DNA from: an uncultured virus (IMG/VR IMGVR_UViG_2540341072_000002) | Lineage: Duplodnaviria > Heunggongvirae > Uroviricota > Caudoviricetes | IMG/VR virus record: IMGVR_UViG_2540341072_000002 | DNA length: 64,000 nt | Reading direction: 5' to 3' (one strand) | Part shown: positions 3,546 through 63,428 of the stretch, in pieces | Numbering within the stretch: the first letter of the stretch is position 1 | How the letters are laid out: each line of letters starts with the position of its first letter | Translations under genes and position numbers: made by a program | Notes under the pieces: model-generated | What the model was told of the DNA's origin: nothing | Seen by the model: only the letters and a program-made list of their open reading frames with translations | Database searches by the model: none

Positions 3546-3610
3546 AATACCTCCACTAATTTTATTTTTATTCTAAATAAAAGACCGATTTTATCCTGTT
3601 CCTATTTACA

Positions 3611-3973
3611 TTAATCTAGATAAACAACTTCTTTTACAATTGGAAATGGACTACTGATTCTCTCACTTAAATGCAAAACTATTTCAGTTACGTCTTTTGA
3701 TGTTGCCACGTGGACTGCCTTTGTAATTTTAAAATTGAATTCATTTTCAATTAAGAGACGTTTACCTTCGGAAAATATATCTATTGAACTAACCGCAAAA
3801 TCACACTTTCCATTTATTCGATACGGATTAAAGCATTTCACAAAATAACATTTATTTAATTCCTTACTGTCTGATAAAACAATGTCAAATTCCACATCCC
3901 AAACAAACGTGTTAATCTTAGAATGATAAACTAAATCATGGGTAGCTCCTGTATCTTTAAAAATTTCAATCAT
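3611..3973 (-). CDS. yotI: Hypothetical phage protein
   Basis: ORF coupled to the upstream gene. Confidence 0.7.
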
Positions 3974-4158
3974 TGAAATAATCCTCCCCAAATCACTCCT
4001 GCTGCAATAGCAGCTATAAAGACAGAAACAAATTTCATTAAAATGAAAAACTTAATATGCTTTGTTTCGTTCTCAGTTAAGTCAAAATCTGATAAAGCGA
4101 ATAAACCAAACACAATTAACAATATCCAGGCTGTAACAATCAGGTATCTTTCCTCCAA
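3970..4158 (-). CDS. yotH: Small membrane protein (2 TM)
   Basis: Two hydrophobic segments. Confidence 0.65.
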
Positions 4159-4566
4159 TCATGTTTTATTGTGGCAGATATTAATATATTCCTTCAGGCT
4201 ATTAACTGTTGAAATAATACACCCTCGAACCTCTTCAGGATCTTCAAAATCCATTTCATTTTGCAGAACAAATTCATCAAACTCAATCATGGCAAGAAAG
4301 CGATCGTCATTGGGTAGCTTATTAAAATCAATATTCTTTAATCTTGGAATACCTTTTTCCTTTATCCATTCAAGGAAGGGATAATCAACATCATTCTTTG
4401 CTACTGCGATTTTTAAAAACTCATGAATATCAGAAGAGTTTTCAATATTGAAATAAATCATGAGACTTTCCTTCATAAGATCAAATAATCACAATAAAGT
4501 TTTATCAATGTTATTGTCTGATTTAATTTCAAAGTCTATATTAAACCAGGACATTACGTTCTCCAT
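4159..4566 (-). pseudogene. yotG: yotF+yotG: one reading frame split by an in-frame TGA at 4489-4491
   Basis: AGGAGG RBS and ATG at 4566; 25 codons, TGA, then LFDL in frame with the 105-aa ORF 4159-4476. Confidence 0.6.
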
Positions 4567-4597
4567 TCAATCCCTCCTTGTACATCTAAACTATTAC

Positions 4598-4744
4598 TCA
4601 CTTGACTAACCCCCTTAAGCGTTCGACTTCTGCAACTAACCATTCTGCATAACTGATATGAATTTTTATCACCTTGGTTGATCTAAGTCGCCGAGACATT
4701 ACTTCAACAAATTTTTTAACTTCTTCAAATTCAATCTCTTTCAT
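4598..4744 (-). CDS. yotE: Hypothetical small protein
   Basis: ORF track; weak RBS. Confidence 0.5.
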   Translation of the reverse strand: MKEIEFEEVKKFVEVMSRRLRSTKVIKIHISYAEWLVAEVERLRGLVK

Positions 4745-4779
4745 TGAGTTTATCCCACTAAATGAAATCAACGTCTTAA

Positions 4780-4911
4780 TCAATCAAGTATCTTATTTTT
4801 TGGCTTTATATCGATTTCATCACAAGAAGGACATGAAAAATCTGAATTGTCACCTATCCAACTAAAATTGCATTCATTACAAGTCCAATCAATTTGTTCT
4901 CTACTGTCCAT
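4780..4911 (-). CDS. yotD: 43-aa zinc-ribbon microprotein
   Basis: Read manually: WTCNEC...SCPSC; GAGGTG RBS. Confidence 0.75.
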   Translation of the reverse strand: MDSREQIDWTCNECNFSWIGDNSDFSCPSCDEIDIKPKNKILD

Positions 4912-4950
4912 TATAGCTACACCTCTTTCTTAATAAATTCAACATTTTAT

Positions 4951-5142
4951 CTACTTCCAATTGTAGTTCTCCTTTTCTTTCTCTGAATCACCTATATGCG
5001 AAAGAATCCAATTATGATAACCCTCTTCTCCACAATTAGGGCAATCCATTTCAGATATAACCTTTAATGTGTTTATCATAGGATTTTTAGCAAACAAGTG
5101 ATGATTGCATTTTCTACAAAAAAACACAACTTCATTTTCCAT
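4951..5142 (-). CDS. yotC: Zinc-ribbon protein
   Basis: CRKC...CPNC motifs. Confidence 0.75.
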   Translation of the reverse strand: MENEVVFFCRKCNHHLFAKNPMINTLKVISEMDCPNCGEEGYHNWILSHIGDSEKEKENYNWK

Positions 5143-5185
5143 GTCTCCCCTTCCCTTCTGTATAAAATTAGAATTTTAATTAAAT

Positions 5186-6013
5186 CTAAATCTCGAATGT
5201 TTTAAGCTCAAACGTTTTATATGAATCTACTTCTTCACCAGGTATCACATTGACACTCGGATAATTATCATAGTCATACGGGTATCCGATACAATTCATG
5301 TGAAAGCTCGTTCCATCTTTGTCAAACTCAGCTTGTAAATGATCATGTCCACAAACCCAGTGTTTTGCGTTAATGAACGGGACATCAACCATGTAGCATG
5401 TATTAGGCTCAAATGGAGAATAAGGATTGTGAACAGGTGGAACATGTGAGACAAATACATCAACTTGTGTATTTTCAAGCGTTTCATACCAATCCATTGA
5501 TTCTTTCCACATCGCTCTTACACCATCTACTTTGTTATAACCATTAAGCCAAATGTAATTAGAATCGTTAGATACTCCTTTAAAGAAGTCCCATCCTTCG
5601 ATTCCTTTTGGAAGGTACCACATTACATCTCCTGCAAAGACTTTTCCTTTGTATGTTTCAGTTGTCTTAATTAATGGTGTTACATTTTTCATGTCAGCAG
5701 CTTTTTGAATTAGATCATTCAACCTGCCTAACGAGTCTGAGTATTTCCTTTTTTGGCTCTTGCTAAGTAAATAAAGATCATGATTACCATATGTAAAGTA
5801 AACCTTCTCGTATTGCTTTGCTGCCTCATCTAAAACCCATAAAGTTTGTTGATTCCATTCAGTAAAATCGCCGGCAATGACCAATACCTCCCCATTACCG
5901 TTTGAGATTAACCTATTTACAATTTCTCTTGTTCGCTTCTCCCACTTAATCTGATTTACATTCCAAGGAATCCAATGATTTATATGGAGATCTGAAACAT
6001 AATCAATTTTCAT
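5186..6013 (-). CDS. yotB: Metallophosphoesterase (calcineurin-like)
   Basis: SDLH, AGD, GNHD, GHDH motifs; start [10 protein letters not shown] after AGGTGG. Confidence 0.88.
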
Positions 6014-6056
6014 TTTGTCTCCACCTTTCTTAATGAAAAATTTATTTCTTTGGCGT

Positions 6057-6085
6057 GTATAAATTAAAATAATCTCTCCATAATA
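6057..6085 (+). promoter_or_regulatory. sigmaG-type promoter of sspC
   Basis: GTATA-N17-CATAATA. Confidence 0.65.
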
Positions 6086-6131
6086 TGATTCAAACAAGCT
6101 TGTTTTCATTACACTTTAGGAGATGAATAAG

Positions 6132-6350
6132 ATGGCTCAACAAAGTAGATCAAGATCAAACAACAATAATGATTTACTAATTCCTCAAGCAGCTTCAGCT
6201 ATTGAACAAATGAAACTTGAAATAGCTTCTGAGTTTGGTGTTCAATTAGGCGCTGAGACTACATCTCGTGCAAACGGTTCAGTTGGTGGAGAAATCACTA
6301 AACGTTTAGTTCGCTTAGCTCAACAAAACATGGGCGGTCAATTTCATTAA
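6132..6350 (+). CDS. sspC: Alpha/beta-type small acid-soluble spore protein
   Basis: EIASEFGV...[17 protein letters not shown] signature. Confidence 0.97.
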
Positions 6351-6355
6351 TTTAT

Positions 6356-6382
6356 GAGGGGGATAATTCCCCTCTCTTTTTT
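6356..6382 (+). terminator. Intrinsic terminator after sspC
   Basis: GAGGGG/CCCCTC stem plus T tract. Confidence 0.8.
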
Positions 6383-6649
6383 AAGTCTTCTCTAAATCCA
6401 TACAGAACTAATGGTATTGTTTCCACCTCTTTTTATGTCACTAACTACTATTATTAAGCTCCTCGACTTGCACTGTGTAATGTCTGTACCATTTTATTGC
6501 CTCCTTTGATTAGCCACTCTATAAATTGCGTTCTCTTCATTTAGAATATATCCAGCGCTCCGTCACAATAAGAACATTTGCCACTACCCTCTTCACATGT
6601 ACACATATATTTGTCACCTCCAATTTCGCTACCGTCAACTGACAACTCC

Positions 6650-7003: not shown

Positions 7004-7110
7004 TGAATCACCTCCTTAAAGTTTGAATAAAATATTAGTTTTAAAAAATGTATATTTTTTGTTTTTGTATATTAGATAAAAAAACTGTCATTTCATCATC
7101 TTCTATTATT

Positions 7111-7140
7111 ATATTATACATATTATTTGTATTTGTCTAT
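7111..7140 (-). promoter_or_regulatory. SPbeta repeated element (promoter/operator) upstream of yosX
   Basis: TATACATATTATTTGTATTTGTCTA; minus strand reads TAGACA...TATAAT. Confidence 0.7.
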
Positions 7141-7233
7141 AGTTATTTTATTTTCATTCTTAAATCCATTTACTTAGCCCTGACAAATGCTAAAAGGGCT
7201 TGAGCCGTATAATGAGTGCAGCTAAACACAATT

Positions 7234-8222: not shown

Positions 8223-8331
8223 AATCTCTTCCTCCTTAAATATTAGATAAAAGTATTCTTTTATTCGGAAATATTTCCAACAAAAATCTTTTATGGTAAA
8301 TTAAAAACAATGTATTTAAAGGAGTGTTAAT

Positions 8332-8577: not shown

Positions 8578-8590
8578 CTTATACATATAT

Positions 8591-9589: not shown

Positions 9590-9634
9590 TATGTATTAGC
9601 TCCTTTTAATTCAAGTTTGTTTAAAATTACCCTT

Positions 9635-9877
9635 TTATCGTAATTCCTTTAGTAACTCATCAAGTTCATTAGGCTTAAAACCAACACTTCGGTTTACTTC
9701 TTCTCCCTGATCACTCAGCAGAATGGTTACCGGTACTCCCATGACACCAAATCTTGCTGCTACTTCTGGTTCCTGTGTAACGTCAACAGTCTCAAATTGA
9801 ATATTTACTTGTTCTAAGTAATTGGACACCATTTTACATGGATTGCAATTAGGCTGCTCTAATTTAATTAATCTCAT
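9635..9877 (-). CDS. yosR: Thioredoxin/NrdH-like redoxin
   Basis: CNPC active site, GVP motif, downstream of nrdF. Confidence 0.88.
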
Positions 9878-16218: not shown

Positions 16219-16305
16219 TTTACATCTCCTTATTTTTTGTATTTTGAATAAAGCTGTGATTTTATCTAGATTCAAGCAGTACCTATTCGTCCTCCTTAGG
16301 AATTG

Positions 16306-17402: not shown

Positions 17403-17462
17403 AGCACAATGCTCCTTTTAATATTTATTTTTTAGATTTAGAATCCACTAATCTCTTTAAAA

Positions 17463-17825
17463 TCATCCTTTTATGGAGAACGAATGAATACCAGGTACAC
17501 CCACAACGCTCTGGAATGGATTGAGCACATTAAATTCTATTTCTACCGCCAAATCTCTGTCTGAGTTCATTTGAATTCTTTCGATTTTCACATTAACTTC
17601 GCTTGTTTCATCTTCTAGACTAGTCATTTTCATTTTATAAGTGCCCTTAGATACACCGCCTAGTTCAACCCATTTATAAACCAATAAATCATTACTAATC
17701 CTTACTGTGATTTTATCTTCGTTTTCAGTTGCCTCTACATTTTTGTAATGAAGAACCATTCTTGTTTCATTTGGTAAATGTTTATTCAGTGTTTCTTCAT
17801 ATACGGCAATTTCTTTTAAGATCAT
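17463..17825 (-). CDS. yosG: Hypothetical phage protein
   Basis: ORF track, RBS. Confidence 0.75.
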   Translation of the reverse strand: MILKEIAVYEETLNKHLPNETRMVLHYKNVEATENEDKITVRISNDLLVYKWVELGGVSKGTYKMKMTSLEDETSEVNVKIERIQMNSDRDLAVEIEFNVLNPFQSVVGVPGIHSFSIKG

Positions 17826-17867
17826 ATCTAACTCTCCTTTTGAAAATTTCGGCTTAAAATAAAACTT

Positions 17868-17993
17868 TTATTTAGACTTATTGTCGTTTTGCAAAATGGT
17901 GTCAGCAGCTAAAGATGTAGCTTTCATTTCGCCGACAATTTTACCAGTTGATTTCTTTTTGAAAATAATCTTTGCAGCATTATCATCACTCAT
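17868..17993 (-). CDS. yosF: Hypothetical 41-aa protein
   Basis: Read manually; AAGGAGG RBS. Confidence 0.65.
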   Translation of the reverse strand: MSDDNAAKIIFKKKSTGKIVGEMKATSLAADTILQNDNKSK

Positions 17994-18764: not shown

Positions 18765-18802
18765 TTATTCACCTCCTTATAAGTCTCTTTAAAAATTGAA
18801 TT

Positions 18803-19345
18803 TTAATCTAAATGCTCCATTACAATTTTTAGATAATCTTTATAGTCAGTAGCAACCACACTGTCTCCATTAACAAGCTGTTCAGTTTTAACTCCAAAGA
18901 ACCACCTGTCACCTATCCATTGACGACCAGTCATGTTGTTTAACCCCAGCTCATCATGAGACCTAAATGGATACACTTCTTCAATTTGCTCAATCATAGC
19001 TTTTATTTCTTTAAAGTATTTAGATCGTTTTTTGAAAGCATAGAATCCGTCTACTTGATTTTTAACAATGTCATTTTTAAATATTTCATACGCTTCTGTT
19101 CCTTCGTAGACTCCAAAGTACTCAGAGTGATAAAACGAGAAGCCTTCCTTGACTCCATACTTTTCTTCGAATTTATCAAAGAAAGAGTTTATATCCTCTT
19201 TGCGTTTCTTCTCAGATTTATACCAGTCACTTTCCTGTTTAACTTCGTAAATCGGTGCATCTAAGGTTTGCATACTCTCATCTCCCCTAATATTTCTTTC
19301 TGCTTGTTTTAATTTGTCGTATACTGCGCTTGCCCGGGAAATCAT
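18803..19345 (-). CDS. yosC: Hypothetical phage protein (start may be the internal MQTL)
   Basis: ORF track. Confidence 0.7.
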   Translation of the reverse strand: MISRASAVYDKLKQAERNIRGDESMQTLDAPIYEVKQESDWYKSEKKRKEDINSFFDKFEEKYGVKEGFSFYHSEYFGVYEGTEAYEIFKNDIVKNQVDGFYAFKKRSKYFKEIKAMIEQIEEVYPFRSHDELGLNNMTGRQWIGDRWFFGVKTEQLVNGDSVVATDYKDYLKIVMEHLD

Positions 19346-19900: not shown

Positions 19901-19922
19901 ACATTTGTATAAAAGGAATATT

Positions 19923-20135
19923 TTATCCTCTTATTTTGTATTTGATATTTAATCCTAAATGTTCTAATGTCTTCTTAACACTTAAATTGCTGCATTCATT
20001 TTTCACTTTATCGGAATAACCCTTTGCACAACTTTCACAACAGTTGAAGTCTACATAAGTTTTTTCATCGCTGATCCTAAGACAAATTGTTTTTCCGCTT
20101 ATGTACTCCTTACAGATGTCACATATATGATTCAT
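19923..20135 (-). CDS. yorZ: Cys-rich small protein (CxxC...CxxC)
   Basis: CDIC and CCESC motifs. Confidence 0.7.
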   Translation of the reverse strand: MNHICDICKEYISGKTICLRISDEKTYVDFNCCESCAKGYSDKVKNECSNLSVKKTLEHLGLNIKYKIRG

Positions 20136-21250: not shown

Positions 21251-21293
21251 TCGATCCACTCCTCTTATTTTATATTTGTTTAAAAGACAAATT

Positions 21294-22625
21294 TTATTCA
21301 GATTCTTTATTAACATATGTATGTATTAATTCTTGAAATATAGACTCAAGCACACTAACTGTAATTGAATTACCGGCTTGCTTGTATAATTGTGAGTTAC
21401 TTATTCCTGCTGCAAAAGCTTTTTCAAAATCTTCGTCATCAAATGCTTGGAGTCTCCAACATTCTAATGGAGAGAGCTTTCTAATTTTATATTTTGGGTA
21501 TTCTCCGATTGCTACACCATGTCGATCAATTGTATTAACCGTGAAAGCCGGTTCTCCGTTTTCTTTAAAACGTCTTCCATTCTGTCTTTTCTCTTCTCTT
21601 TCTGGCGTTAACACTGCCCTTACTTCTTTCTGCTTTTCTGCGATTTTAGGTTCTCTGTGACCGCCGCCCATTGTAGTTAATGTCGGTGAAAGTCCTTCAG
21701 GCGAGTAAACTCTTTTGATGGCATCGTGACCTTTTAAATCCACGTGTCCCACCATTAACGGCTCCCTTACTTCTTGTTTTTGTAGCGGTGCGGTTCCTAG
21801 TTGCTCAACAAGTTTCTTCGTCTTTTCTTCATTTAAGTAATACTTCTCATCAACAAAATCCTCAAGAATTTCTCTCAACCTCTTTGTGACAGTGTCTTGT
21901 AAAGGCCATTTAAAATTAAAACTCTTTATATTTATTTCTTGCAATCTCTTTTTACCTTTACTCAGAACATCGTTTCGCTTCTGACCTACAACCCATTGTT
22001 CATTTTCAACCAAATCTTCTCTAATGCCAATTATGTATACCCGTTCACGATTCTGTGGAACATTGAAAAACTTTGAATTAAGTAGCTCTAGGTCAATCCT
22101 ATAGCCTATATTGTTCATAGTCTCACTAATTATTCTTAACACTTGTCCATTGCCACTATTAATTAGCCCTTTTACATTTTCTAATATCACAAATTTCGGC
22201 TTCTTCTCTTCTGCTAACAAAGCTGTTTCAAAAAAGAGCGTTCCCCGTTCATCTTTAGCCTTAGAAACAGCTTCACACTTCGGGCATTTGACTCCCTTCT
22301 TATAATCCTCATAAGTAATTAAATGCTCGTGCGAACAATTGCTACACTTATATTCCATACCATCACGGCCGCCGGCTACTGAAAAAGTGGGACAAGGAAA
22401 TCCACTTGTTAACAAATCAAAATATGGAATATTATCTTTCTTAGCTTTACTTATGTCTCCAACATTCAATGTTTCACTTACATTATGAATTGCACAATAA
22501 GATTTGATTGCATATTTATCTATTTCACTAAAGCCAATCAGTTCATAATCAACGCCTATGTTTCTTAATGCAGCTTCAAATGCACCAATTCCACTAAAAA
22601 GGCTCATTACACGTAGTTTACTCAA
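21294..22625 (-). CDS. mtbP: Multispecific DNA (cytosine-5) methyltransferase
   Basis: FSGIG, FPC, ENV, QNRER and YKQAGNS motifs; long variable region. Confidence 0.95.
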   Translation of the reverse strand: MSKLRVMSLFSGIGAFEAALRNIGVDYELIGFSEIDKYAIKSYCAIHNVSETLNVGDISKAKKDNIPYFDLLTSGFPCPTFSVAGGRDGMEYKCSNCSHEHLITYEDYKKGVKCPKCEAVSKAKDERGTLFFETALLAEEKKPKFVILENVKGLINSGNGQVLRIISETMNNIGYRIDLELLNSKFFNVPQNRERVYIIGIREDLVENEQWVVGQKRNDVLSKGKKRLQEINIKSFNFKWPLQDTVTKRLREILEDFVDEKYYLNEEKTKKLVEQLGTAPLQKQEVREPLMVGHVDLKGHDAIKRVYSPEGLSPTLTTMGGGHREPKIAEKQKEVRAVLTPEREEKRQNGRRFKENGEPAFTVNTIDRHGVAIGEYPKYKIRKLSPLECWRLQAFDDEDFEKAFAAGISNSQLYKQAGNSITVSVLESIFQELIHTYVNKESE

Positions 22626-22673
22626 CAAACAACCTCCATATATTTTATTTTTACTCTAAATAAAATTGATCTT

Positions 22674-22793
22674 TTATTTTAATTTCTTTAGCACTTTTTC
22701 AAACTCTGTTTTTGCTTCGTTCATAATTTGATATACCTTGTGATGAATTGTTGACTCACAAGAAGCTGACAGTCTTTTAATAAAACGTTCCAC
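22674..22793 (-). CDS. yorT: Hypothetical 39-aa protein
   Basis: Read manually; AAAGGAG RBS, GTG start. Confidence 0.6.
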   Translation of the reverse strand: MERFIKRLSASCESTIHHKVYQIMNEAKTEFEKVLKKLK

Positions 22794-22824
22794 TGTTTTC
22801 TCCTTTCTGGATAAATGAGATATT

Positions 22825-23343
22825 TTAAAGTAATTTTCGTTCAATCTCTTCCCAATTCATAACACGAATAAATCTATTTTCATTCCTGTTATGGGGAGCA
22901 TCAAATAGTATCTTCATTCCTTCAAATGATTCTAAGTTATGTATTCCATCATCGATCATGATGTCTGCTTTAATTATGTTTTTATTGCCACAAAGCACAA
23001 CATTGCTATGAGGAATAAATGGAAAATATTCTGTAAGCCATTCAAGCTTTGCTTTAAGGGAATCTGGATGGTTTGTTGCTGTAGTCACAACATACACTTC
23101 ATATTTCTTCATCAGCTCTTTTGTCACTCTTTGGCTACCTTCTATAACATTTAGATTTCTGAACAAATCGTAATCTAAATGTCTATAAACATTATTGTTG
23201 GTATTTGTATATTTTTTTATATCCCAACATAGGATGTCTTTCTCTTTGAGAAAAGGATCATCGTATGTGTTAATGTAAGCTACCCAATCACTTAGTAAAT
23301 CAGCTAAGACCTGATCCATGTCAATCGCAATTACTTTTTTCAT
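22825..23343 (-). CDS. yorS: 5'(3')-deoxyribonucleotidase (HAD)
   Basis: IDMDQVL, K..WL, MIDD motifs. Confidence 0.9.
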   Translation of the reverse strand: MKKVIAIDMDQVLADLLSDWVAYINTYDDPFLKEKDILCWDIKKYTNTNNNVYRHLDYDLFRNLNVIEGSQRVTKELMKKYEVYVVTTATNHPDSLKAKLEWLTEYFPFIPHSNVVLCGNKNIIKADIMIDDGIHNLESFEGMKILFDAPHNRNENRFIRVMNWEEIERKLL

Positions 23344-24744: not shown

Positions 24745-25461
24745 TTACCAGCTTACTCTTACATTTTTACGACCAAATGCATTTGCTTCTTGCTCACTGT
24801 CCATTAGAATATCAATACGATTGTTTTTAATGTCCCCTCCTGTATCTATTGCATATGCTTGAAAGCTATTTCCTTCATATGAAACTTGCACTAATGAATA
24901 CAAAGGAATTACTTCTGGATCAACAGCAATTATTCTTTTTCCATTGTAATAGGATGTGTTTGATACATCGTAGCCGGTTCTTGTTTTCCCTGTGCACCCT
25001 GTAGAGCAAAACGCAGTATAAGCAGTAGCAACAACTTCATGACTCTTCACTGCCTTTGCATTTGTACTTTTTGAAACTGCTTTATCAAGATTTCTCTTTG
25101 TATTGGTTTTTTGCACTTTTTTTGTTTTTGTATGTTTTGCTGCTTTTTTATTTTCTTCTGTTAGATATGTAATTGTCGCATTAAGATACTTTTTTCTACT
25201 TTCAGCCTGCTTTTCTTCCTCACTCTTTAGCCTAGGAAGGATTCTTGGAACGTCAATTTCGTGAATAAGTTTTTGCCTCACCTCTTTTTTATTTAAATAA
25301 AATGACTTTTTTATTGAGACTTGATTATCTTGATGTGTATACAAGTTTTTAGCGCTATATACGAGCCCTACTCCTAACAAACCAATTGTAGCAAAAAGTG
25401 CCATTTTGTTAATTCTATGATATACATATTTTTTATGTTTGTCTATAAGTTTTTTGAAAAT
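24745..25461 (-). CDS. yorM: 3D-domain (MltA-like) cell-wall protein with N-terminal TM; ATT start at 25461 or ATG at 25404
   Basis: ATAYT, IAVDP, DTGG..K.NRIDI motifs. Confidence 0.85.
   Translation of the reverse strand: MFKKLIDKHKKYVYHRINKMALFATIGLLGVGLVYSAKNLYTHQDNQVSIKKSFYLNKKEVRQKLIHEIDVPRILPRLKSEEEKQAESRKKYLNATITYLTEENKKAAKHTKTKKVQKTNTKRNLDKAVSKSTNAKAVKSHEVVATAYTAFCSTGCTGKTRTGYDVSNTSYYNGKRIIAVDPEVIPLYSLVQVSYEGNSFQAYAIDTGGDIKNNRIDILMDSEQEANAFGRKNVRVSW
25417..25445 (-). promoter_or_regulatory. SPbeta repeated element / promoter
   Basis: TAGACA-N17-TATCAT. Confidence 0.7.
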
Positions 25462-36765: not shown

Positions 36766-36877
36766 CATGTTTTATAAACTTTTATATTTTTTATTTTTGT
36801 ATTTCATTTGCGCTCTTTTTAATTCGAATAAAATTATCATTTTATTTAAATTTAAAAGCCCCAATAAGGGACTCTTG

Positions 36878-40678: not shown

Positions 40679-40776
40679 TCAACAACTCTCCTTAAATAGG
40701 TTTATTTTTATTTTTTACTTTCATCTTATAAGCAATCACATTAGTACCACCCCCTTCTCCGAATAAAAAATTACTT

Positions 40777-41172
40777 TTATGCAGACTCAATACTGATGCC
40801 AGTATCTTTTAACAATTCAATTTGTTCCGATGGAATATCCGATTTCACCATACTCCACCCGACTAAGGTCATTCCGTAATAAAGATCGGTTAGTTCAACT
40901 TCATCATTCAACTCACCTTTTAATCGAATCATTCGATCTTTATATTTTTCATGACCAACAATATCAAAGCTCTGATTATAAATTGCATATGTTTTACCGT
41001 TTGCTTCGTTGTCTTGATATGGGGTATAGACTGCCCTGCCGTCAGACAAGCTCGGATCAGTTTTCAACCATTCATATACCTCTTCATCAGATTGAGCAAG
41101 CAAATATGTAAAGATACCCCGCTCACTTCCCTTGGGTGCAAAGTGCTCTAACATAATTTCATATAAGTTCAT
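40777..41172 (-). CDS. yoqY: Hypothetical phage protein
   Basis: GGGAGGT RBS. Confidence 0.75.
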   Translation of the reverse strand: MNLYEIMLEHFAPKGSERGIFTYLLAQSDEEVYEWLKTDPSLSDGRAVYTPYQDNEANGKTYAIYNQSFDIVGHEKYKDRMIRLKGELNDEVELTDLYYGMTLVGWSMVKSDIPSEQIELLKDTGISIESA

Positions 41173-41226
41173 TTCAATTACCTCCCTGGATTCTGGTTAA
41201 AATATCGTTTTTATCTAGATTTCTGT

Positions 41227-43554: not shown

Positions 43555-43719
43555 TACGGTTACCTCCTTCCATTAAAATAAATATTTTATTTTAAATGCT
43601 ATTTTTCTTTAAACCTTTTTAAATTTCCAAGCTTCATTTCACCTTTATTACTGCAAGCAGGTTGTCATACGCTTGCCATATAAAAGAGACTGGACATTTT
43701 TGTCTCGGAGGTGAAATAA

Positions 43720-43914: not shown

Positions 43915-43945
43915 CATCCTAATATGTTTAGTTAAAAACTATCTT

Positions 43946-44293
43946 TTATTCAATCTCTATATTCAACCCAGTTGATCCAACTTTGATTTCCCTCATCTCT
44001 CCAATCTGTGGCATATATAAATGTTTCTTTTCATTAGAAACAATTTCACCCTTCCAACAACCGTTTTGCACAAAGGATTTTGTCCCGATTGGTAAAGTTT
44101 GAAGATCTGCGTTCTCTATGTATTCTCCCTCCTCTCTATAAATATCTCCTTGTTCAGAAATCCTCCTTTTCGAAACTTTAATGTCGATTTTGTAAAGTGA
44201 ATTTTCATCCTCAATCATTAATTTATATAGCCAATCAGTTATTTTTGATTGCTCTTCACTACCGTTAACCATATCGAAAATCTTCCTGTACAT
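43946..44293 (-). CDS. yoqS: Hypothetical phage protein
   Basis: ORF track. Confidence 0.7.
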   Translation of the reverse strand: MYRKIFDMVNGSEEQSKITDWLYKLMIEDENSLYKIDIKVSKRRISEQGDIYREEGEYIENADLQTLPIGTKSFVQNGCWKGEIVSNEKKHLYMPQIGEMREIKVGSTGLNIEIE

Positions 44294-44952: not shown

Positions 44953-45065
44953 TATCTCCGCTCCTTTAAATCACGATTTTAATTTAACTTTAATGTGTAT
45001 CATCTTGAGAAAATCCCCTTTAATTGGTAAACTCATACTTAACTTACATAAGAGTAGGTGATTCC

Positions 45066-47863: not shown

Positions 47864-47962
47864 CTGCTTAATATATTCTGGATCACTAAGTTTTTTGAAA
47901 TTGACTATCGGTTCTCACCCTTTCTTTAAAACAGTCTTTTTATTCAACCATTATTAACAGAC

Positions 47963-48658: not shown

Positions 48659-48740
48659 TGAAAATTCCTCACAATTTTTTTAGTTAATTTCCCTTATTTC
48701 TGGATTGATTATTCATTTGTATTTGATTAAAACTTCAATT

Positions 48741-48998
48741 TTATTTTGATTTAATCTCAACAATTAGACTGTCAGGATAGTTTTTCAAATCAAGTGCGTT
48801 TACATGACAGTGACCTACATATCCTTCTTTATCAACGTAATTATAATAAAACTTTTCCCCATTATTAATGATAACTTCGCCATTATGTGTATACTCCATC
48901 TCTGTTCCTTTATACCAAGTTACTTGAACTTTTGTGCCAGGTTTGATTTTATTTAAATCAAATATTGTTATTTCTTTTAGCAGGTTCATTTTCTCCAT
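48741..48998 (-). CDS. yoqG: Hypothetical phage protein
   Basis: ORF track, RBS. Confidence 0.7.
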   Translation of the reverse strand: MEKMNLLKEITIFDLNKIKPGTKVQVTWYKGTEMEYTHNGEVIINNGEKFYYNYVDKEGYVGHCHVNALDLKNYPDSLIVEIKSK

Positions 48999-49419: not shown

Positions 49420-49472
49420 CTTCCATCCTCCGATTCTCTTTAAAATTTTACTTTTATCTAAAGTTTTCAAAT

Positions 49473-50228: not shown

Positions 50229-50268
50229 TAAATACCTCCGTCTCATTTAATTTAAAATGCATCTTTTA

Positions 50269-52609: not shown

Positions 52610-52697
52610 GTGATATCCCCCTCCAATTCGAATCTCGATGAAACTTACATTTTATCCACTAATTTTAATTTTGTTACCTTAGTGAAAATTACACAAT

Positions 52698-54084: not shown

Positions 54085-55062
54085 TTAAATGGTCGTCTCT
54101 TTTAGACCTAGTTCTTCTGCGTAATATTTATTAACTTCTTCCTCATTAATATAATCTTGCATTGAATAAACTGCTCGATATTTGGATTTTACCCTTAAAT
54201 TAAAGTCATCTATAATCTGATACCTTACAGAGTTATCAATAACCCCTTTTTCTTTATAAAGCTGATATGCTCTATACAAATGACCAGATCTAACAATAGT
54301 ATTTGGTGTTAAAAAGTTAATTTTAAAGAACTCAGATATATCAGTAATTAGATTAGTTATGACAAATTTACTTGCTTGGCCGTCTCCTTTGTTGGACGTT
54401 CTTTTTGTTTTAACTACATAATCATTTTCAACTAAAAAGACTTCTTTTGTTTGGCCTTTTGCCTTCCCATTCTTTAATTTATATTTAGTTTCCTGAGCTG
54501 CATTTAAGGCAATAACAAGACATTCACTACTAACTTTTAGTTTTCGTTCACCGTGCTTTGAATCATAGAGGGTTAAAACGTTACCGTTAAGCATTGCATC
54601 CTCAACTTGCTTCTTCGTTAAACTTAGCAATTCAGAATGAGCTAAACCAGAAACTCCTTCAAAAAGTAGTCTTAACACAGCCTTAGATTGATAATTAACT
54701 AATTGATTTTCCATTTCCTCTAATTCACTATAAGTAATATATAATTTTTTGTCCCCGAGACATTCATAAAGCTCTTCTTCAGAAATAGTTCTTGCTAAAT
54801 TGGTTAATCCTTTACTTAACTTATATGAAATTGCCCAATCAATATACAATGACAATAATGCTAAGGTTCTTCGAACACTACCGATAGTGGTTTGATCGAA
54901 TGATCGTATAAGTTCTAAAATTTGCATTGATGTGAAATCATAAATGTCTTTATTATATAAAGTCTCAGTAATCTCTGCTTTTGCAAAAATAGGCCTCATC
55001 TGCATAACCATACCCTCAGATAAGGTATCTAAATATTTTTCCTTAATCTCACTATTGAACAT
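54085..55062 (-). CDS. yopR: Master repressor MrpR/SroF (catalytically degenerate tyrosine-recombinase fold)
   Basis: Integrase-like N-terminal domain, catalytic motifs eroded; Gly136 present (wild type, not the c2 allele). Confidence 0.85.
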   Translation of the reverse strand: MFNSEIKEKYLDTLSEGMVMQMRPIFAKAEITETLYNKDIYDFTSMQILELIRSFDQTTIGSVRRTLALLSLYIDWAISYKLSKGLTNLARTISEEELYECLGDKKLYITYSELEEMENQLVNYQSKAVLRLLFEGVSGLAHSELLSLTKKQVEDAMLNGNVLTLYDSKHGERKLKVSSECLVIALNAAQETKYKLKNGKAKGQTKEVFLVENDYVVKTKRTSNKGDGQASKFVITNLITDISEFFKINFLTPNTIVRSGHLYRAYQLYKEKGVIDNSVRYQIIDDFNLRVKSKYRAVYSMQDYINEEEVNKYYAEELGLKETTI

Positions 55063-56574: not shown

Positions 56575-57651
56575 TTATCGCTCATTTACATGCTTTATAA
56601 ACTTTTTTAATGTAACAAGATCAGCGTTTTCAAAAAAACTAATAAAATCCTCTTGGGTTGCTTCATATAGTGGATTTAAATCGATTTTTTCATCCATTGT
56701 TACACCAGCAGAGTTCGCTATGTTAATCTTTCTGCTCATATATCTCTCTGTTGTTAATGTGTTTTTATGATTTCCTTGTTCTTTTGCTGCAAGTAAATCG
56801 TGACCAGAATTCTCATAGACATAGTCAATTCCTACACCCTTAAATGAGTGTAAGACTAATTCTCTTTCAGGAGGTATTCCTAACCTTTTTTTCGACCTTT
56901 TTAAGGAGTGTCGTAAAGATTGTTCCGAAAGCCCCTGAAAAACCAATTCAGTTTCGCTGTCATCCTCTTCCTTCAGCTGCAACAATTCCTCATAAAATAC
57001 CTGGTTAATGCCTGTAGACACAACCTGAGATCCTTTATCAATAACTGTTACTATATAATGGCCTGTACTTTCATCAAGCTGTATGTCTTTCCATCTTACT
57101 CGCAAAATCGCACTTACACGAAAAGAAGTTCTGATGGCGAATTTAACAAACAGCTTTTTCATTAAAGGTTTCTGTCTTTCATTTATATACATATCCTGAG
57201 CGATTCTTTCGGCTTCTGTCTGGGTTGTTTTATCCCAGTTTTTAGTTACTGTTTTAAGCCTTTCGACAGTATTAAACACCGACAAGTCAATATAGTCCTT
57301 ATAATCATGCTCCAAATATGTATAGAGCATCTTCAAGGAGGTCATTTTTCTGTTAATACTATTATTAACTAATCCCTTTTCCTGAAGATACTTCACATAG
57401 TTGCTTAATTCGCTTTTACTTACAACTAAATCATCGGGAACTAAACTTTTGACATCTTTACCTTTAATCACACTAAAGAACTGCTTAATATCCCCTTCAT
57501 AATTCTTTCTGGTGTTCGACACCCTTCTAGTTGATGAAGGCATCATATAGTTAGAATTCCCTGAGCTACTTCTTATATCTTTATTGATTAAAAAGCCCTC
57601 GATATCATCGTAAACCGCATAATTTTTTAATTGTTTAATTTTATTTTGCAT
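56575..57651 (-). CDS. yopP: Tyrosine recombinase-family protein, SroD
   Basis: TSFRVSA, IDKG, LHSFK, GNH, TTERY. Confidence 0.85.
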   Translation of the reverse strand: MQNKIKQLKNYAVYDDIEGFLINKDIRSSSGNSNYMMPSSTRRVSNTRKNYEGDIKQFFSVIKGKDVKSLVPDDLVVSKSELSNYVKYLQEKGLVNNSINRKMTSLKMLYTYLEHDYKDYIDLSVFNTVERLKTVTKNWDKTTQTEAERIAQDMYINERQKPLMKKLFVKFAIRTSFRVSAILRVRWKDIQLDESTGHYIVTVIDKGSQVVSTGINQVFYEELLQLKEEDDSETELVFQGLSEQSLRHSLKRSKKRLGIPPERELVLHSFKGVGIDYVYENSGHDLLAAKEQGNHKNTLTTERYMSRKINIANSAGVTMDEKIDLNPLYEATQEDFISFFENADLVTLKKFIKHVNER

Positions 57652-57853
57652 TATCTTCTCCTCCTTTCTCATCTAATAACTCATCAATAGAGACATTCAA
57701 CACCAGAGCGATAAGCTTTATGGTTGTAACATCTGATTCATCTGGCATTTCAATGATTTTGTTTAATGTCTGCATATCAATCATTGTCTCCCTCGACAAT
57801 TCCTCTATTGTGATGCCACGTTTGACCATTAGCTGTTTTATTCGCTCTGACAT
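57641..57853 (-). CDS. yopO: XRE-family HTH protein, SroC
   Basis: HTH pattern. Confidence 0.82.
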   Translation of the reverse strand: MSERIKQLMVKRGITIEELSRETMIDMQTLNKIIEMPDESDVTTIKLIALVLNVSIDELLDEKGGEDNAK

Positions 57854-60147: not shown

Positions 60148-60176
60148 AATCTCTTTAAAATTCCAATTTTAACTAG

Positions 60177-61738: not shown

Positions 61739-61776
61739 ATAATCAACCACCTCATATTTATAGAATAGTGAAGATG

Positions 61777-61908
61777 TTATAGCCGCTTCCATTCAACATA
61801 CTCGAACCGCTTCTGATACAAGTCTTCAAGTATAGCAGCCCATTCAATCCAACCTTCTGCAACAATGTTTTTCTTTTCTCCATTCTCAATCCACTCTATC
61901 CAATACAC
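61777..61908 (-). CDS. yopG: 43-aa Trp-rich protein
   Basis: Read manually; AGGAG RBS, GTG start. Confidence 0.6.
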
Positions 61909-61918
61909 CTGAACACTC

Positions 61919-62134
61919 CTAACGCTTTACGACTTGAATTTCCCTTACCTCACATTGCACATTACACTTCGTTTTAAGCTCACTTGCTACCTCGATGACT
62001 TCTAACATATTATGTATTTTAGAAGCTTCATGGAGGTCGCTAGATGTCAAATAACCACTCTCATCTAATTTAAATGCTTTAAAGTATTCCTTGTTTTCAA
62101 ACTGCAGTACATAAAAATAATCAATCAAAGGCAT
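61919..62134 (-). CDS. yopF: Hypothetical protein
   Basis: ORF track. Confidence 0.7.
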   Translation of the reverse strand: MPLIDYFYVLQFENKEYFKAFKLDESGYLTSSDLHEASKIHNMLEVIEVASELKTKCNVQCEVREIQVVKR

Positions 62135-62137
62135 AAA

Positions 62138-62389
62138 TCAACCTCTTTTAAATAATTTTGTAATCCTCATTGCCAATGGCAGTAAACCAATTAACATAAA
62201 AAAAGCAATCACATTAAGCTTATTTTTGAAAAACAGGCTGGCCAAATTCCTTTCCATGCCCGCTGCTGTTTCTTTATCCATGAGTTCTTTAAACTCTTCA
62301 TCATAGACCTGATCAACAAAAATAAACTTAATGCCAGTCAATAATCCAACTCCAAGCCAAATAATTAAAAAATAAGCTAATCCAATCAT
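62138..62389 (-). CDS. yopE: Small membrane protein
   Basis: 2 TM, GGGAGG RBS. Confidence 0.7.
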   Translation of the reverse strand: MIGLAYFLIIWLGVGLLTGIKFIFVDQVYDEEFKELMDKETAAGMERNLASLFFKNKLNVIAFFMLIGLLPLAMRITKLFKRG

Positions 62390-62459
62390 TTGTTCCCTCC
62401 CTATATCGAACGAAATTTGGTATTCTTGAGTATGTTGAATAAATTATGTAGGTGATCTT

Positions 62460-62639
62460 GTGGAAGAGAAATACGAAACAAACGGATATGACACTTCAAT
62501 CGTATATGATTACAAAGAATATCCTGATGTAAAATACGGCCGCTGCGACAATTGTGATTACACTTTGTTTAAAAGCTCTGTGAAGAGTGGAATATTTTTA
62601 CGTGAATGCAGAAGGTGTGGCATGAAAAAGAGCATTTAG
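62460..62639 (+). CDS. 59-aa zinc-ribbon protein
   Basis: Read manually: CDNC...CRRC; AGGTGA RBS; terminator at 62625-62654. Confidence 0.65.
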   Translation: MEEKYETNGYDTSIVYDYKEYPDVKYGRCDNCDYTLFKSSVKSGIFLRECRRCGMKKSI

Positions 62640-62740
62640 TGTAATGCTCTTTTTGTTTAAAACACTTCTTTTATCTTGATTCTTTATGCTCTCGGATTAA
62701 GACGCGTAATCGTGTTAAGGTTAGCATAAGGAGTGATACC

Positions 62741-62971
62741 TTGCTAAAAGTTGCAAAAATTTCGGTTTCTTGCATTGTATTAGTCTTGTGCATATACTCA
62801 TTGTTCAATCAAAATGAATTATTGTTGATTGTTGTGCAATTATTTGTTGCCGCCCTTTTATCATTAGTCGGAGTTGAAGCGATATTAAGCAAACAAAAAC
62901 TGTCCGAATATTTACTGTTTGGATCAGCAGCCTTCTTACTTGTTGTAAACGGTGTGAAATTCATAATTTAA
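62741..62971 (+). CDS. Small membrane protein (3 TM)
   Basis: Hydrophobic ORF, AAGGAG RBS. Confidence 0.7.
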   Translation: MLKVAKISVSCIVLVLCIYSLFNQNELLLIVVQLFVAALLSLVGVEAILSKQKLSEYLLFGSAAFLLVVNGVKFII

Positions 62972-62975
62972 TATG

Positions 62976-63371
62976 TTAATTTCGTAGGAATATCGAATCC
63001 CAAAACCAATAAATAAACGCAGCTACAATACTCATAATGTAATACTCAAAGCTTCTGAACATGGTAAGAGCATTTGGCGGATAATCAACAAACCAGAACA
63101 AAAACACAGCTGAAAAGGCCACTGCAATATAAATTAAAAAATTGATCAAACTGAATTTTCTGCGCCTTCTTCTTAGCCACACTTGCAAAGGGGCAGCAAA
63201 CACCAAGTAAGTGATTAAAGCGTAAAATGCAATGATGGCAATTGTGACTAATGCTATTGCCATAAATCCAGAGTAAACAAACAGATACAGACCAAAAATT
63301 AGACCAAATGACAAACTTGAAAACGCCAGAGTATAAACATAACTGTTTAACGCTTTTTGATTGAGGCTCAA
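62976..63371 (-). CDS. yopD: Membrane protein (4 TM)
   Basis: Hydrophobic ORF, GGAGGTG RBS. Confidence 0.75.
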   Translation of the reverse strand: MSLNQKALNSYVYTLAFSSLSFGLIFGLYLFVYSGFMAIALVTIAIIAFYALITYLVFAAPLQVWLRRRRRKFSLINFLIYIAVAFSAVFLFWFVDYPPNALTMFRSFEYYIMSIVAAFIYWFWDSIFLRN

Positions 63372-63428
63372 ATCAGCACCTCCGCTTGTTTCACATTTCC
63401 CTTTAAAATCGTAGTTTTTAGATTTCAG

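Follow-up and report, generated by a model that had tools for sequence, protein, structure and literature searches.

A palindrome with a fixed 6-bp spacing recurs in the early half of SPbeta

We analyzed a window of 64,000 nucleotides that covers the early half of the B. subtilis SPbeta prophage. We found 25 perfect TAAAA-N6-TTTTA cores in this window, whereas dinucleotide shuffles gave 0.92 on average and never more than 4. Only the 6-bp spacing was enriched: among spacers from N0 to N14, every other length gave 0 to 2 copies. An earlier note on this DNA had claimed a motif beyond chance and proposed the check for N6-specific enrichment, and both expectations were borne out. All 21 of the perfect cores that it placed are among our 25, to which we add four (17458, 25298, 32473, and 54310), and its six one-mismatch copies lie where it put them. 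Two weaker copies, 35379 and 49030, carry two to three core mismatches each and are doubtful.

Genome-wide, 34 of the 65 perfect cores lie within the 134-kb prophage and 31 are spread across the remaining 4.08 Mb of the host, so that the prophage density is 33-fold that of the host. Nine perfect cores are in the late and cargo regions of SPbeta. A 28-bp weight matrix gave 47 SPbeta sites with at least 10 bits, versus 4.0 expected, and about forty copies stand between prophage genes, each with its own six-letter middle. The identical N6-specific motif is present in the phages phi3T, Goe11, Goe14, and SPR, with 18 to 23 perfect cores per phage. The pattern is real and beyond chance.

Site anatomy and gene context

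The sites consist of two arms, whose inner 5 bp do not vary and whose outer TYT/ARA is less strictly kept, on either side of a 6-bp center of free sequence. The 11-bp arm symmetry described earlier holds for the inner 5 bp and is only partial beyond them: position -6/+21 pairs in 23/29 sites, and positions -3 to -1 are mostly unpaired. This anatomy matches the solved XerH-difH structure. XerH covers arms of 11 and 10 bp with a 6-bp center between them, and its specific readout is of the inner 5 bp (PMC5241119). Between orthologous contexts, differences affect 0 to 0.6% of inner-arm positions and 2 to 3.6% of those in the spacer and flanks; no extra constraint on the spacers was detected in these contexts.

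At 10 sites the upstream gene is annotated as ending on the core TAA. These are yosR (yosR/yosS, 9622..9637), yosF (yosF/yosG, 17855..17870), yosC (yosC/yosD, 18790..18805), yorZ (yorZ/yosA, 19910..19925; a generic stem_loop in AF020713), mtbP (mtbP/yorV, 21281..21296), yorT (yorT/mtbP, 22661..22676), yorS (yorS/yorT, 22812..22827), yoqY (yoqY/yoqZ, 40764..40779), yoqS (yoqS/yoqT, 43933..43948), and yoqG (yoqG/yoqH, 48728..48743). All have perfect cores except the yorS/yorT site, which has one mismatch. Eleven such cases had been counted before, of which one is the doubtful 49030 copy. At the perfect yosG/yosH core (17458..17473), the yosG TGA stop lies inside the spacer. At 18 sites, 14 to 36 nt separate the core from the start codon that follows, as at the yotI/yotJ junction (3578..3593; perfect core, matrix score 23.8), where the distance is 33 nt. 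Further junctions are yoqX/yoqY (41198..41213), which is the most symmetric copy, and yoqT/yoqU (43574..43589), both with perfect cores, and yoqO/yoqP (44966..44981), with one mismatch. At yopC/yopD (63404..63419), the one-mismatch copy shares its spacer with a perfect core in other phages.

Four perfect cores are placed next to transcription signals. Two are in leaders, 3' of an SPBRE promoter (yosX, 7028..7043; yorM, 25298..25313). One lies past the yorD terminator and 5' of the yorE SPBRE promoter (36829..36844), and one lies past the yopJ terminator and precedes the aimR SPBRE by 34 bp (60156..60171). The palindromes differ from SPBRE, the MrpR operator, as the earlier note had held. In the MrpR study, ChAP-seq peaks are at SPBRE promoters and not at the palindromes (PMC10516654).

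The claims that all copies sit at gene boundaries and that the replication and sro blocks lack them do not hold strictly, because two perfect cores are intragenic, one in the helicase gene yorI (32473..32488) and one in yopR/mrpR (54310..54325). Both have poor outer arms. The yorI core is probably not a functional site. The yopR core behaves like ordinary sequence: its 19 copies have one type of flank on each side.

Homology breaks and whole-gene replacements coincide with the sites

We compared SPbeta with four relatives, phi3T, Goe11, Goe14, and SPR. This was the breakpoint check proposed in the earlier note, and homology breaks did cluster at the sites with base-pair precision. Among 59 boundary-zone breakpoints, 23 fell within 10 bp of a site, versus 11.5% expected. 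Alignment starts clustered at core -2 to 0, and ends clustered at +13 to +17 and at +21 to +24. On the non-homologous side, identity ended 0 to 2 bp past the 16-bp core in 213/235 upstream-side and 199/279 downstream-side pairs. The pairs, some of them between related phages, do not represent independent events.

Individual sites illustrate this. Homology starts at the core at 36829 (with Goe11, Goe14, and SPR), at 7028 (between phi3T and Goe14), at the one-mismatch yotC/yotD copy (4934..4949; Goe11), and at the one-mismatch yopV/yopW copy (52639..52654; phi3T). At the perfect yopD/yopE core (62658..62673), phi3T homology starts 4 bp past the site. Site 22812 is the end of a 13.6-kb stretch of phi3T homology, and the perfect yosU/yosV core (8248..8263) has breakpoints against Goe11, Goe14, and SPR.

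Between consecutive shared sites, 33 of 173 segments were wholly replaced. The methylase slot, with its right edge at 21281 and its left edge at 22661, holds either a 444-amino-acid methylase or an unrelated 142-amino-acid protein. The yoqD slot holds 257 amino acids or an unrelated 82. The yotC slot (TTCTAA..TGTTGA), whose left edge is the perfect yotB/yotC core (5163..5178), is filled in three unrelated ways in SPbeta, Goe11, and Goe14. The one-mismatch yosK/yosL copy (16249..16264) is the right edge of another replaced slot, GGATGA..TCACAG. Fillings of the yosG slot, whose right edge is the core at 17458, are proteins 25 to 50% identical; some of the "replaced" cassettes are thus highly diverged homologues and not unrelated genes.

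We found that 19 of 28 SPbeta palindromes have cores that occur elsewhere with at least two types of flank on both sides, compared with 10/129 other intergenic 16-mers and 1/133 genic 16-mers. The perfect yoqI/yoqJ core (47927..47942; sense-strand spacer agactg) has 29 copies that join 12 upstream and 11 downstream types in 26 combinations and pass the four-gamete test. The perfect yoqD/yoqE core (49441..49456) also passes this test, and the perfect yoqC/yoqD core (50253..50268) has 9 upstream and 11 downstream types. The core at 17855 joins two upstream and three downstream modules across four phages, with more in IMG/VR. In phi3T, the left arm of a 48728-type site is fused to a yoqI-type spacer and right arm, and yoqH-yoqI is absent.

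The sites are not the sole mosaic joints; many joints lie elsewhere, and 23 site-free gaps also hold breakpoints. When we controlled for gap length, site-bearing gaps held an excess of breakpoints with p = 0.0015 across the whole early region and with p = 0.14 (19/25 versus 21/55) where all four relatives were compared. Among the recombination sites of laboratory phi3Ts x SPbeta hybrids, 15/16 fell within long homology (bioRxiv 10.1101/2020.05.06.055103).

The 6-bp centers behave like slot addresses

Within one genome, none of 1,845 site pairs shared a spacer. Across genomes, 183 pairs did so, versus about 8 expected, and the shared spacers were perfectly collinear in 10/10 phage pairs among SPbeta, phi3T, Goe11, Goe14, and SPR. 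On average, a real spacer was found again in 6.9 of 55 other sequences and a letter-permuted one in 0.25. Thus, the centers behave like addresses: they are slot specific and common to several phages. The earlier note had invoked the tolerance of the Tn916 integrase for mismatched overlaps. Since the centers are slot specific and shared, the partners of an exchange match in the 6 bp, and such tolerance need not be invoked.

YopP is the likeliest candidate enzyme for the sites

The gene yopP (sroD; 56575..57672, minus strand) encodes a tyrosine recombinase of Xer-like type, in which Pfam identifies Phage_integrase and SAM-like N domains. Residues R185, K213, H275, K/R278, H302, and Y311 are conserved across 15 relatives down to 32% identity; in SPbeta YopP the second catalytic Arg is replaced by Lys. 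Among PDB entries, the structure model (pLDDT 80.5) is matched best by XerH on palindromic difH. In 40 of 51 21-kb loci around YopP relatives, TAAAA-N6-TTTTA is the top 5-mer dyad, and it is tied in three more; it is present at some loci where the YopP relative is only 28 to 31% identical. The suggestion that YopP might be the recombinase thus gained from the retained catalytic residues and from this co-occurrence with the motif. However, YopP co-occurs with all other core genes of this phage family, and co-occurrence with the motif therefore does not single it out. The arms are also still TAAAA where YopP identity has fallen to about 30%, which is unusual for a cognate pair. YopP/SroD is the likeliest candidate for the enzyme, and the palindromes are probably YopP sites.

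A proposed cassette-exchange system is the best explanation of the sites

We put at about 0.5 the probability that the palindromes are double-stranded DNA recognition sites of 11-6-11 geometry that serve as joints for cassette exchange among SPbeta-like phages, probably by YopP. A recombinase, most likely the Xer-like YopP/SroD from the sro operon, would pair a site with the same-centered site in the genome of a co-resident relative and exchange strands at the edges of the 6-bp center. In this way, one or more genes flanked by two joints would be traded as a cassette, leaving gene order undisturbed. Each cassette would bring its own ribosome-binding site just past the right arm, and its stop codon would often be the TAA supplied by the left arm that follows. 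We infer that protein binds the sites and that the exchange is enzymatic rather than recombination through short homology. The earlier reading of the palindromes as cassette-shuffling sites is supported insofar as breakpoints lie at them and whole genes between retained sites are replaced. It is not supported in its strictly integron-like form: an integron has an attI/Pc platform, folded attC sites, and circular cassettes, and we found none of these for the SPbeta sites. The palindrome-bounded gene swaps suggest a gene-cassette exchange system built into SPbeta-like phages.

A less probable explanation is that the palindromes are operators of a dimeric DNA-binding regulator that silences or punctuates transcription, with gene exchange as a by-product. 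Stoperators of mycobacteriophage L5 silence and punctuate transcription from positions between genes. The conservation of arm sequence around a free center would suit an operator, as would inner half-sites that are 11 bp apart, center to center, a distance suited to a helix-turn-helix dimer. So would the siting of copies in 5' leaders, past terminators, and ahead of promoters, as well as the nine perfect cores in the late and cargo regions. The regulator could be the second repressor SroE/YopQ, one of the helix-turn-helix proteins YopO, YopS, and YonR, or a host protein. Several helix-turn-helix proteins are encoded nearby; the available part of the SroE preprint reports no DNA target (bioRxiv 10.1101/2025.11.27.690993). 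If the sites were the sole short identity between otherwise different modules, general or phage homologous recombination would therefore resolve there. A shared 16-bp core with divergent flanks is also the expected trace of such crossing-over in a short identical stretch, and the gap-level enrichment of breakpoints is modest once gap length is controlled. The PeSLs of T4-type phages are a precedent for regulatory cassettes that mediate modular shuffling (PMC2839356).

However, an operator does not predict that an unread 6-bp center stays identical from phage to phage while both flanks change, as seen in 19/28 cores (8% for other intergenic 16-mers). Sixteen base pairs is very short for homologous recombination, and of the longer SPBRE boxes just 1/10 has a breakpoint, a comparison of low power. 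SPbeta and phi3T have no DNA-level homology in the sro region (74.6 to 83.7 kb of the record), and their sro-region proteins are strongly different, yet the motif is identical in both. The MrpR peaks at SPBRE promoters rather than at these sites likewise do not favor an operator.

It is unlikely that the palindromes are targets of a phage nuclease, such as an HNH endonuclease, whose breaks stimulate repair from a co-resident relative and convert the flanking genes. Freestanding homing endonucleases of T-even phages act in this manner, dimeric nucleases typically have interrupted palindromes as targets, several HNH endonuclease genes are present in SPbeta-like phages (yoqL, yosQ, and phi3T_164), and breakpoints cluster at the sites. 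However, a phage with about 40 such targets in its own genome would pay a high cost, the HNH genes vary among these phages while the motif is constant, and break repair leaves conversion tracts of variable length, not edges 0 to 2 bp from the core.

Least probable of all is an intercistronic RNA hairpin for processing, protection of downstream mRNA, or translational coupling: sites in operon arrays do fall between a stop codon and the next ribosome-binding site, and two are annotated as stem_loop in AF020713, but folding is weak (mean, -2.2 kcal/mol as RNA, z = -0.7; -1.9 as DNA), the outer arms pair poorly, the stem is conserved by sequence with neither covariation nor a sense-strand G-U bias, no site matched Rfam, some sites lie past terminators or 5' of promoters, and exchange at the core edges is left unexplained. 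The element most probably acts at the DNA level and not as a hairpin.

Palindromes with a 6-bp center recur at gene boundaries of the SPbeta early region

The genome of Bacillus phage SPBc2 (AF020713.1) matches window positions 2000-22000 with 100% identity in reverse orientation, and the window was placed at G000:C1:2150108-2214107. Thus, bases 1924-64000 span yotN to yopC and make up the early half of the SPbeta prophage. Nearly all of the genes in this part are on the minus strand. We found 25 perfect copies of the core TAAAA-N6-TTTTA in the window, compared with a mean of 0.92 and a maximum of 4 in shuffled sequence. An earlier note, made from the sequence alone, had expected about one perfect core by chance; the pattern that it listed holds, although it missed four of the perfect cores. 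It had also proposed comparing spacer lengths and scanning with a matrix against background. Only N6 is enriched, every other spacing from N0 to N14 being present in 0-2 copies each, and a 28-bp matrix built from perfect sites matched 47 SPBc2 positions at 10 bits or more, compared with 4.0 in Markov-simulated sequence. Of the 65 perfect cores found genome-wide, the 134-kb prophage contains 34, and the other 4.08 Mb contain 31. The shuffles, the N6-only spacing, the prophage and host counts, and the matrix scan reject chance or AT-richness as the cause of the palindromes in the window.

By the annotation of the SPBc2 record, the strong sites are nearly all intergenic. The earlier note had placed every copy at a gene boundary, which is too broad: perfect cores also lie inside yorI and yopR, where the outer arms are poor. 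At 10 sites, one fewer than the note had counted, the stop codon of the upstream gene is the TAA of the left inner arm, and at 18 sites the start codon of the next gene lies 14-36 nt past the core. Some sites follow terminators and precede promoters, such as those between yopJ and aimR and between yorD and yorE. The late and cargo regions of the prophage hold nine perfect cores. In the SPBc2 record, two of the sites are labeled as generic stem_loops. The features that the record calls palindromes, at window positions 53929-53946 (the yopR/yopS gap) and 58469-58484 (upstream of yopM), are unrelated dyads outside the TAAAA-N6-TTTTA family.

The sites are conserved in sequence and fold weakly

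The sense-strand logo of 34 perfect sites reads T-Y-t-n-n-A, TAAAA, N6, TTTTA, w-n-y-A-R-A. Of the outer arms, the downstream one is stronger, with A at position +21 in 32 of the 34 sites. Together with the N6-only spacing, this logo gives the layout of a Xer/dif-type site, which has inverted arms of about 11 bp and a central region of 6 to 8 bp. Pairing between the arms is poor beyond the inner 5 bp; about half of the sites have mismatches at positions -3 to -1, and no sense-strand bias in G-U pairs was found in the arms. When folded as 32-mers, the sites gave a mean of -2.2 kcal/mol as RNA and -1.9 kcal/mol as DNA (z -0.7 to -1.1). That the sequence is conserved and the stem is not points to a protein reading the sites as double-stranded DNA. 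An RNA hairpin is argued against by the weak folding and the pairing counts.

An Rfam search returned no family at the sites and only a group I intron (window 14582-14797, minus strand), which lies inside bnrdE. The bnrdF intron annotated in the SPBc2 record, which carries yosQ, scores below the gathering score of the Rfam family. Four RNA runs mapped to window 16000-23500 gave 0 reads in three and 23 in one.

The palindromes are distinct from SPBRE

The repressor MrpR (YopR/SroF) binds an element called SPBRE at ten promoters (PMC10516654), and the box that it occupies, as a monomer, spans 24-26 bp (bioRxiv 10.1101/2025.11.27.690993). We re-derived the SPBRE box independently from ten promoter upstream regions. 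The derived box has about a dozen copies and lies exactly at the yonP, yonT, yonX, aimR, yopM, yopV, yorE, yorM, yorZ, and yosX promoters. No strong copy overlaps a palindrome, the nearest overlaps being 2-mismatch matches, and several palindromes lie 34-120 bp from a copy. SPBRE and the palindromes are alike in being repeated elements of the same phage, and the protein that binds SPBRE has a tyrosine recombinase fold and is encoded two genes from yopP (PMC10516654). However, SPBRE is non-palindromic, bound by a monomer, and located at promoters, and the palindromes never coincide with its copies. We therefore reject the identity of the two, since the independently derived box is another sequence found elsewhere; the earlier note was right to separate them.

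A one-mismatch SPBRE-like box lies on the minus strand at position 40129 of the SPBc2 record, upstream of yomM in the late region and outside the window; the ten MrpR ChAP-seq peaks given in PMC10516654 do not include it. The annotated start of yorM (window 24743-25459; AF020713) is an ATT upstream of both the SPBRE promoter box and the palindrome at 25298. The true start probably lies downstream of this palindrome, where a ribosome binding site follows.

Homology between related phages breaks at the sites

We compared the early regions of phi3T (70 kb) and of Goe11, Goe14, and SPR (50 kb each) with that of SPbeta. Each of these relatives has 18-23 perfect cores, and N6 specificity was checked in phi3T. 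Pairwise BLAST located 84 unique breakpoints of homology along SPbeta; the gene-boundary zones, with 17% of the sequence, contain 59. Of these 59, 23 lie within 10 bp of a site, where 11.5% would be expected (p = 6e-8). The comparison with relatives that the earlier note had put forward as a check thus came out in favor of the sites. When counted by gaps, a breakpoint was present in 23 of 30 gaps with a site and in 23 of 89 without one, but this excess overstates the effect, since gaps that hold a site are longer. With stratification by gap length, the excess gave p = 0.0015 for the whole early region and p = 0.14 for the part compared with all four relatives (19 of 25 versus 21 of 55). No cryptic site was found in the 23 site-free gaps that hold breakpoints. 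Thus, the sites are not the sole mosaic joints, and in these alignments their distinguishing feature is the precision of the breakpoints. Alignment starts cluster at core positions -2 to 0 and alignment ends at +13 to +17 and +21 to +24; these exchange points are compatible with cleavage at the edges of the center. A site is present in both genomes at the junction in 41 of 61 distinct junction alignments.

The core with the spacer gtttta lies between yosF and yosG in SPbeta and between yosF and a second gene in SPR. In phi3T it joins a different upstream gene to the second gene, and in Goe11 it joins that upstream gene to a third. A scan of IMG/VR with one 16-letter core returned mostly chance matches in AT-rich viruses, and we used the 4 of 119 loci that were SPbeta-like. 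IMG/VR contigs show more fillings after the gtttta core, and the ggatga site always follows 358-701 bp on. On this comparative evidence, a role of the palindromes as junctions is well supported.

Shared centers mark slots whose contents are exchanged

The five phages hold 136 sites with 47 distinct spacers, 33 of which are common to at least two phages. No two sites of one genome have equal spacers (0 of 1845 pairs; about 2 expected), whereas 183 cross-genome pairs do (about 8 expected). In these 183 pairs both flanks were homologous in 42, the downstream flank only in 35, the upstream flank only in 34, and neither in 72, some of the last being indel artefacts because the test was ungapped. 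Spacer order is collinear in 10 of 10 phage pairs, with 12-24 spacers shared and zero order breaks. We call the segment between two consecutive sites a slot. Consecutive shared sites delimit 173 segments: homology is complete in 37 and partial in 88, replacement is complete in 33, and 15 differ by an indel. The methylase slot holds either MtbP (444 aa) or an unrelated 142-aa protein, and the yoqD slot holds a 257-aa protein or an unrelated one of 82 aa. In the yosG slot (window 17474-17854; also present in Goe11, SPR, and the IMG/VR loci L027 and L030), we found homologues only 25-50% identical and, in SPR, an unrelated gene. The edges of this slot are two fully conserved sites, and the genomes are elsewhere >90% identical. 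This suggests either that old alleles are kept by exchange or that diversifying selection is strong.

A scan of IMG/VR by YopP alignment gave 51 loci of about 21 kb, which together with the five phages contain 488 perfect-core sites. There are 70 cores found in at least two contexts; 46 of these have more than one type of both flanks, and two cores pass the four-gamete test. The agactg core combines 12 upstream types with 11 downstream types in 26 combinations. Among identical-core pairs from 427 unique contexts, both flanks were homologous in 142, the downstream flank only in 235, the upstream flank only in 279, and neither in 1067 (about 97 expected by chance); these flank and pair counts, like those for the five phages, take in related phages, and the events are not independent. 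On the non-homologous side, identity past the core extends for 0-2 bp in 213 of 235 upstream-side pairs and in 199 of 279 downstream-side pairs. Of the 28 SPbeta palindrome cores, 19 were observed with both flanks in more than one type, compared with 10 of 129 other intergenic 16-mers and 1 of 133 genic ones. A spacer recurs, on average, in 6.9 of 55 other sequences, compared with 0.25 for letter-permuted spacers. In fully orthologous contexts, spacer and flanks differ alike (2-3%), and the inner arms differ by 0-0.6%. Because the spacer differs as often as its flanks, shared centers reflect common descent of the core and not extra constraint.

The center is free in sequence among sites, yet it is common to phages wherever flanks have been exchanged, with two chimeric sites that join unlike centers. 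One is in phi3T, where yoqH-yoqI are absent and the left arm comes from the yoqG site, with a spacer and right arm of the yoqI type. In Goe11 and Goe14, one upstream module sits on a gatcaa center, and the same module sits on tatctc in SPR. Both joints retain the downstream center. They would be consistent with one strand exchange at the center's left edge, and also with a slip on 7 bp of arm identity; two cases prove nothing.

YopP is a candidate enzyme for the sites

The integration enzyme of SPbeta is the serine recombinase SprA (PMC8612738). A second recombinase gene, yopP (sroD; window 56575-57672, minus strand), encodes Phage_integrase and SAM-like domains (PF00589, 41.3 bits with a cut-off of 27.1; PF02899, 26.9 bits with a cut-off of 22.3). 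The gene belongs to the sro operon, midway through the early region, and sites are found on both its sides and into the late genes. Its neighbors are yopQ, which is DndB/ParB-like, and yopR, which encodes MrpR. The yopQ (sroE) gene occupies window 55086-56480 on the minus strand, and its product matches Pfam DndB (DNA-sulfur-modification-associated) with 58.6 bits. In two papers (PMC8612738; PMC10516654), YopP is described solely as the carrier of a XerC-type domain and as a family core gene. We found neither a description of the palindromes nor a function for YopP in the literature searched, a scope outside which Brady et al. 2023 (Cell Host Microbe) and Lazarevic et al. 1999 fall.

Compared with the two Xer proteins of the host, YopP keeps Arg I, His II, His III, and the tyrosine and has Lys at Arg II. 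Across 15 family members, down to 32% identity, R185, K213, H275, H302, and Y311 are invariant and residue 278 is K or R; it is K in SPbeta. YopP therefore has the catalytic residues and the N-terminal core-binding domain of a tyrosine recombinase. A phmmer search of PDB sequences with YopP gave no match. The best fold match of its AlphaFold model (pLDDT 80.5) is XerH on the palindromic difH. Lower-ranked matches include Cre, XerA, lambda Int, Tn1549 Int, and an integron integrase (rank 36). When all 5-mer dyads with spacers of 3-9 were counted without bias in the 51 loci around YopP relatives, TAAAA with spacer 6 came first in 40 loci and tied in 3 more. At least four copies were present in 43 loci, some with YopP relatives of only 28-31% identity. 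The dyad is absent or rare in seven full-length loci (L177-L180 and L184-L186), which hold the most distant YopP relatives. This co-occurrence of motif and gene falls within one phage lineage and does not single YopP out among the lineage core genes.

In XerH-difH, arms of 11 and 10 bp surround a 6-bp center; the inner 5 bp are read specifically, the outer difH bases are contacted mainly on the backbone, and the center is hardly touched (PMC5241119). The SPbeta sites share this layout of arms and a 6-bp center, and in XerH-difH one recombinase acts on a near-palindromic site. We infer that exchange at the sites is enzymatic, and the chances that they are the targets of a recombinase appear to us to be about even. 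The sites could instead be operators of another protein, with crossing-over within short identities leaving the pattern of exchange. Operators of SroE, the second repressor, would give the same pattern; the literature searched, including bioRxiv 10.1101/2025.11.27.690993, reports no DNA target for SroE. The Lys substitution in SPbeta YopP counts against a recombinase. So do the laboratory hybrids of phi3Ts and SPbeta, in which 15 of 16 recombination sites lie in long homology and one non-homologous junction is reported "following yosA" (bioRxiv 10.1101/2020.05.06.055103). The left switch of the hybrid Hyb2phi3Ts-SPbeta lies downstream of a site and cannot be placed because the DNA there is about 97% homologous. 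However, the anatomy of the sites is that of a solved single-recombinase Xer site, a conserved Xer-like recombinase is present in YopP, and a 16-bp core is very short for general recombination. Furthermore, SPBRE boxes, which are longer than the core, do not act as joints: 1 of 10 holds a breakpoint, a count of low power. We consider the operator explanation the less likely of the two.

A proposed cassette exchange and its likeness to known systems

We propose, with a probability of roughly 0.4, that SPbeta-like phages run a natural recombinase-mediated cassette exchange in which about 40 same-armed sites each carry a unique 6-bp overlap as the address of a slot and YopP acts on them. Co-resident phages or prophages would swap accessory genes slot by slot, and their own gene order would be neither scrambled nor deleted; in the proposal, this safety of order follows from the shared arms and the unique 6-bp addresses. 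The genes swapped would be methylases, nucleotide-metabolism genes, and small early genes without an assigned function.

Engineered cassette exchange with heterospecific lox or FRT sites uses identical arms and differing centers, and only like-centered sites pair. The segment between two unlike sites is swapped between molecules, with order and orientation kept. The SPbeta array is similar in that its spacers are unique and collinear and its slots are replaced. However, the engineered system is a laboratory design, whereas dependence on matching centers in SPbeta is suggested by comparative patterns only. We know of no natural multi-site array of this heterospecific kind. A dif site differs in being a single chromosomal site for dimer resolution, whereas SPbeta has about 40 gene-boundary sites, each with its own center, and a YopP with Lys at the second catalytic Arg.

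The earlier note had read the system as integron-like. This is apt for arrays of mostly single-gene cassettes bounded by imperfect palindromes, with a tyrosine recombinase in the same element, a stop codon often in or beside the site, and an integron integrase among the fold matches of YopP. It does not extend to the sites themselves. An attC site is long, poorly conserved in sequence, and recombined as a folded single strand, with structure conserved over sequence. The SPbeta sites are short (28 bp) and conserved in sequence, and they fold weakly (mean -1.9 kcal/mol as DNA, with positions -3 to -1 mostly unpaired). In addition, SPbeta cassettes bring their own ribosome binding sites within long operons.

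In cluster A mycobacteriophages, the immunity repressor binds stoperators, asymmetric 13-mers whose orientation follows transcription. Their number, some two to three dozen, and their placement in short intergenic gaps throughout the genome of a temperate phage resemble those of the SPbeta sites, but the SPbeta sites are dyads with a free center, and the known SPbeta repressor binds elsewhere. The PeSLs of T4-type phages are likewise short conserved intergenic repeats in variable regions, where insertions, deletions, and replacements occur (PMC2839356). A PeSL, however, combines a terminator stem-loop with a sigma-70-like promoter and acts via homology between copies (PMC2839356). The SPbeta sites lack a promoter consensus (no -35-like element is conserved, and positions -12 to -7 are without information) and a stable stem, and their centers differ among copies.

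These observations bear on the constancy of gene order in large temperate phages, whose small accessory genes turn over by the dozen. This is usually explained by illegitimate recombination events that are rare and are sorted by selection. If our proposal is true, this turnover would have a mechanism in the array of addressed joints, YopP/SroD, a conserved core gene of arbitrium phages, would have a function, and the varied early-gene arrays of SPbeta-like phages could be explained. Confirmation would also provide a ready set of mutually orthogonal recombination sites. If exchange is instead independent of a recombinase, about 40 conserved dyads with slot-specific shared centers would still call for a binding protein and a function.

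The core motif may reach past SPbeta-like phages. Four phage contigs of 34.7-42.4 kb (G001-G004; IMG/VR loci L044, L088, L031, and L036), which by their size are unlike SPbeta, contain 4, 7, 10, and 11 TAAAA-N6-TTTTA cores, and the backwards control pattern is present in 0-2 copies. These counts may otherwise be an effect of AT-richness; 1.8-kb loci measured in the contigs have 25-27% GC. The cores are clustered, some are followed by a ribosome binding site, and their spacers repeat within a genome.
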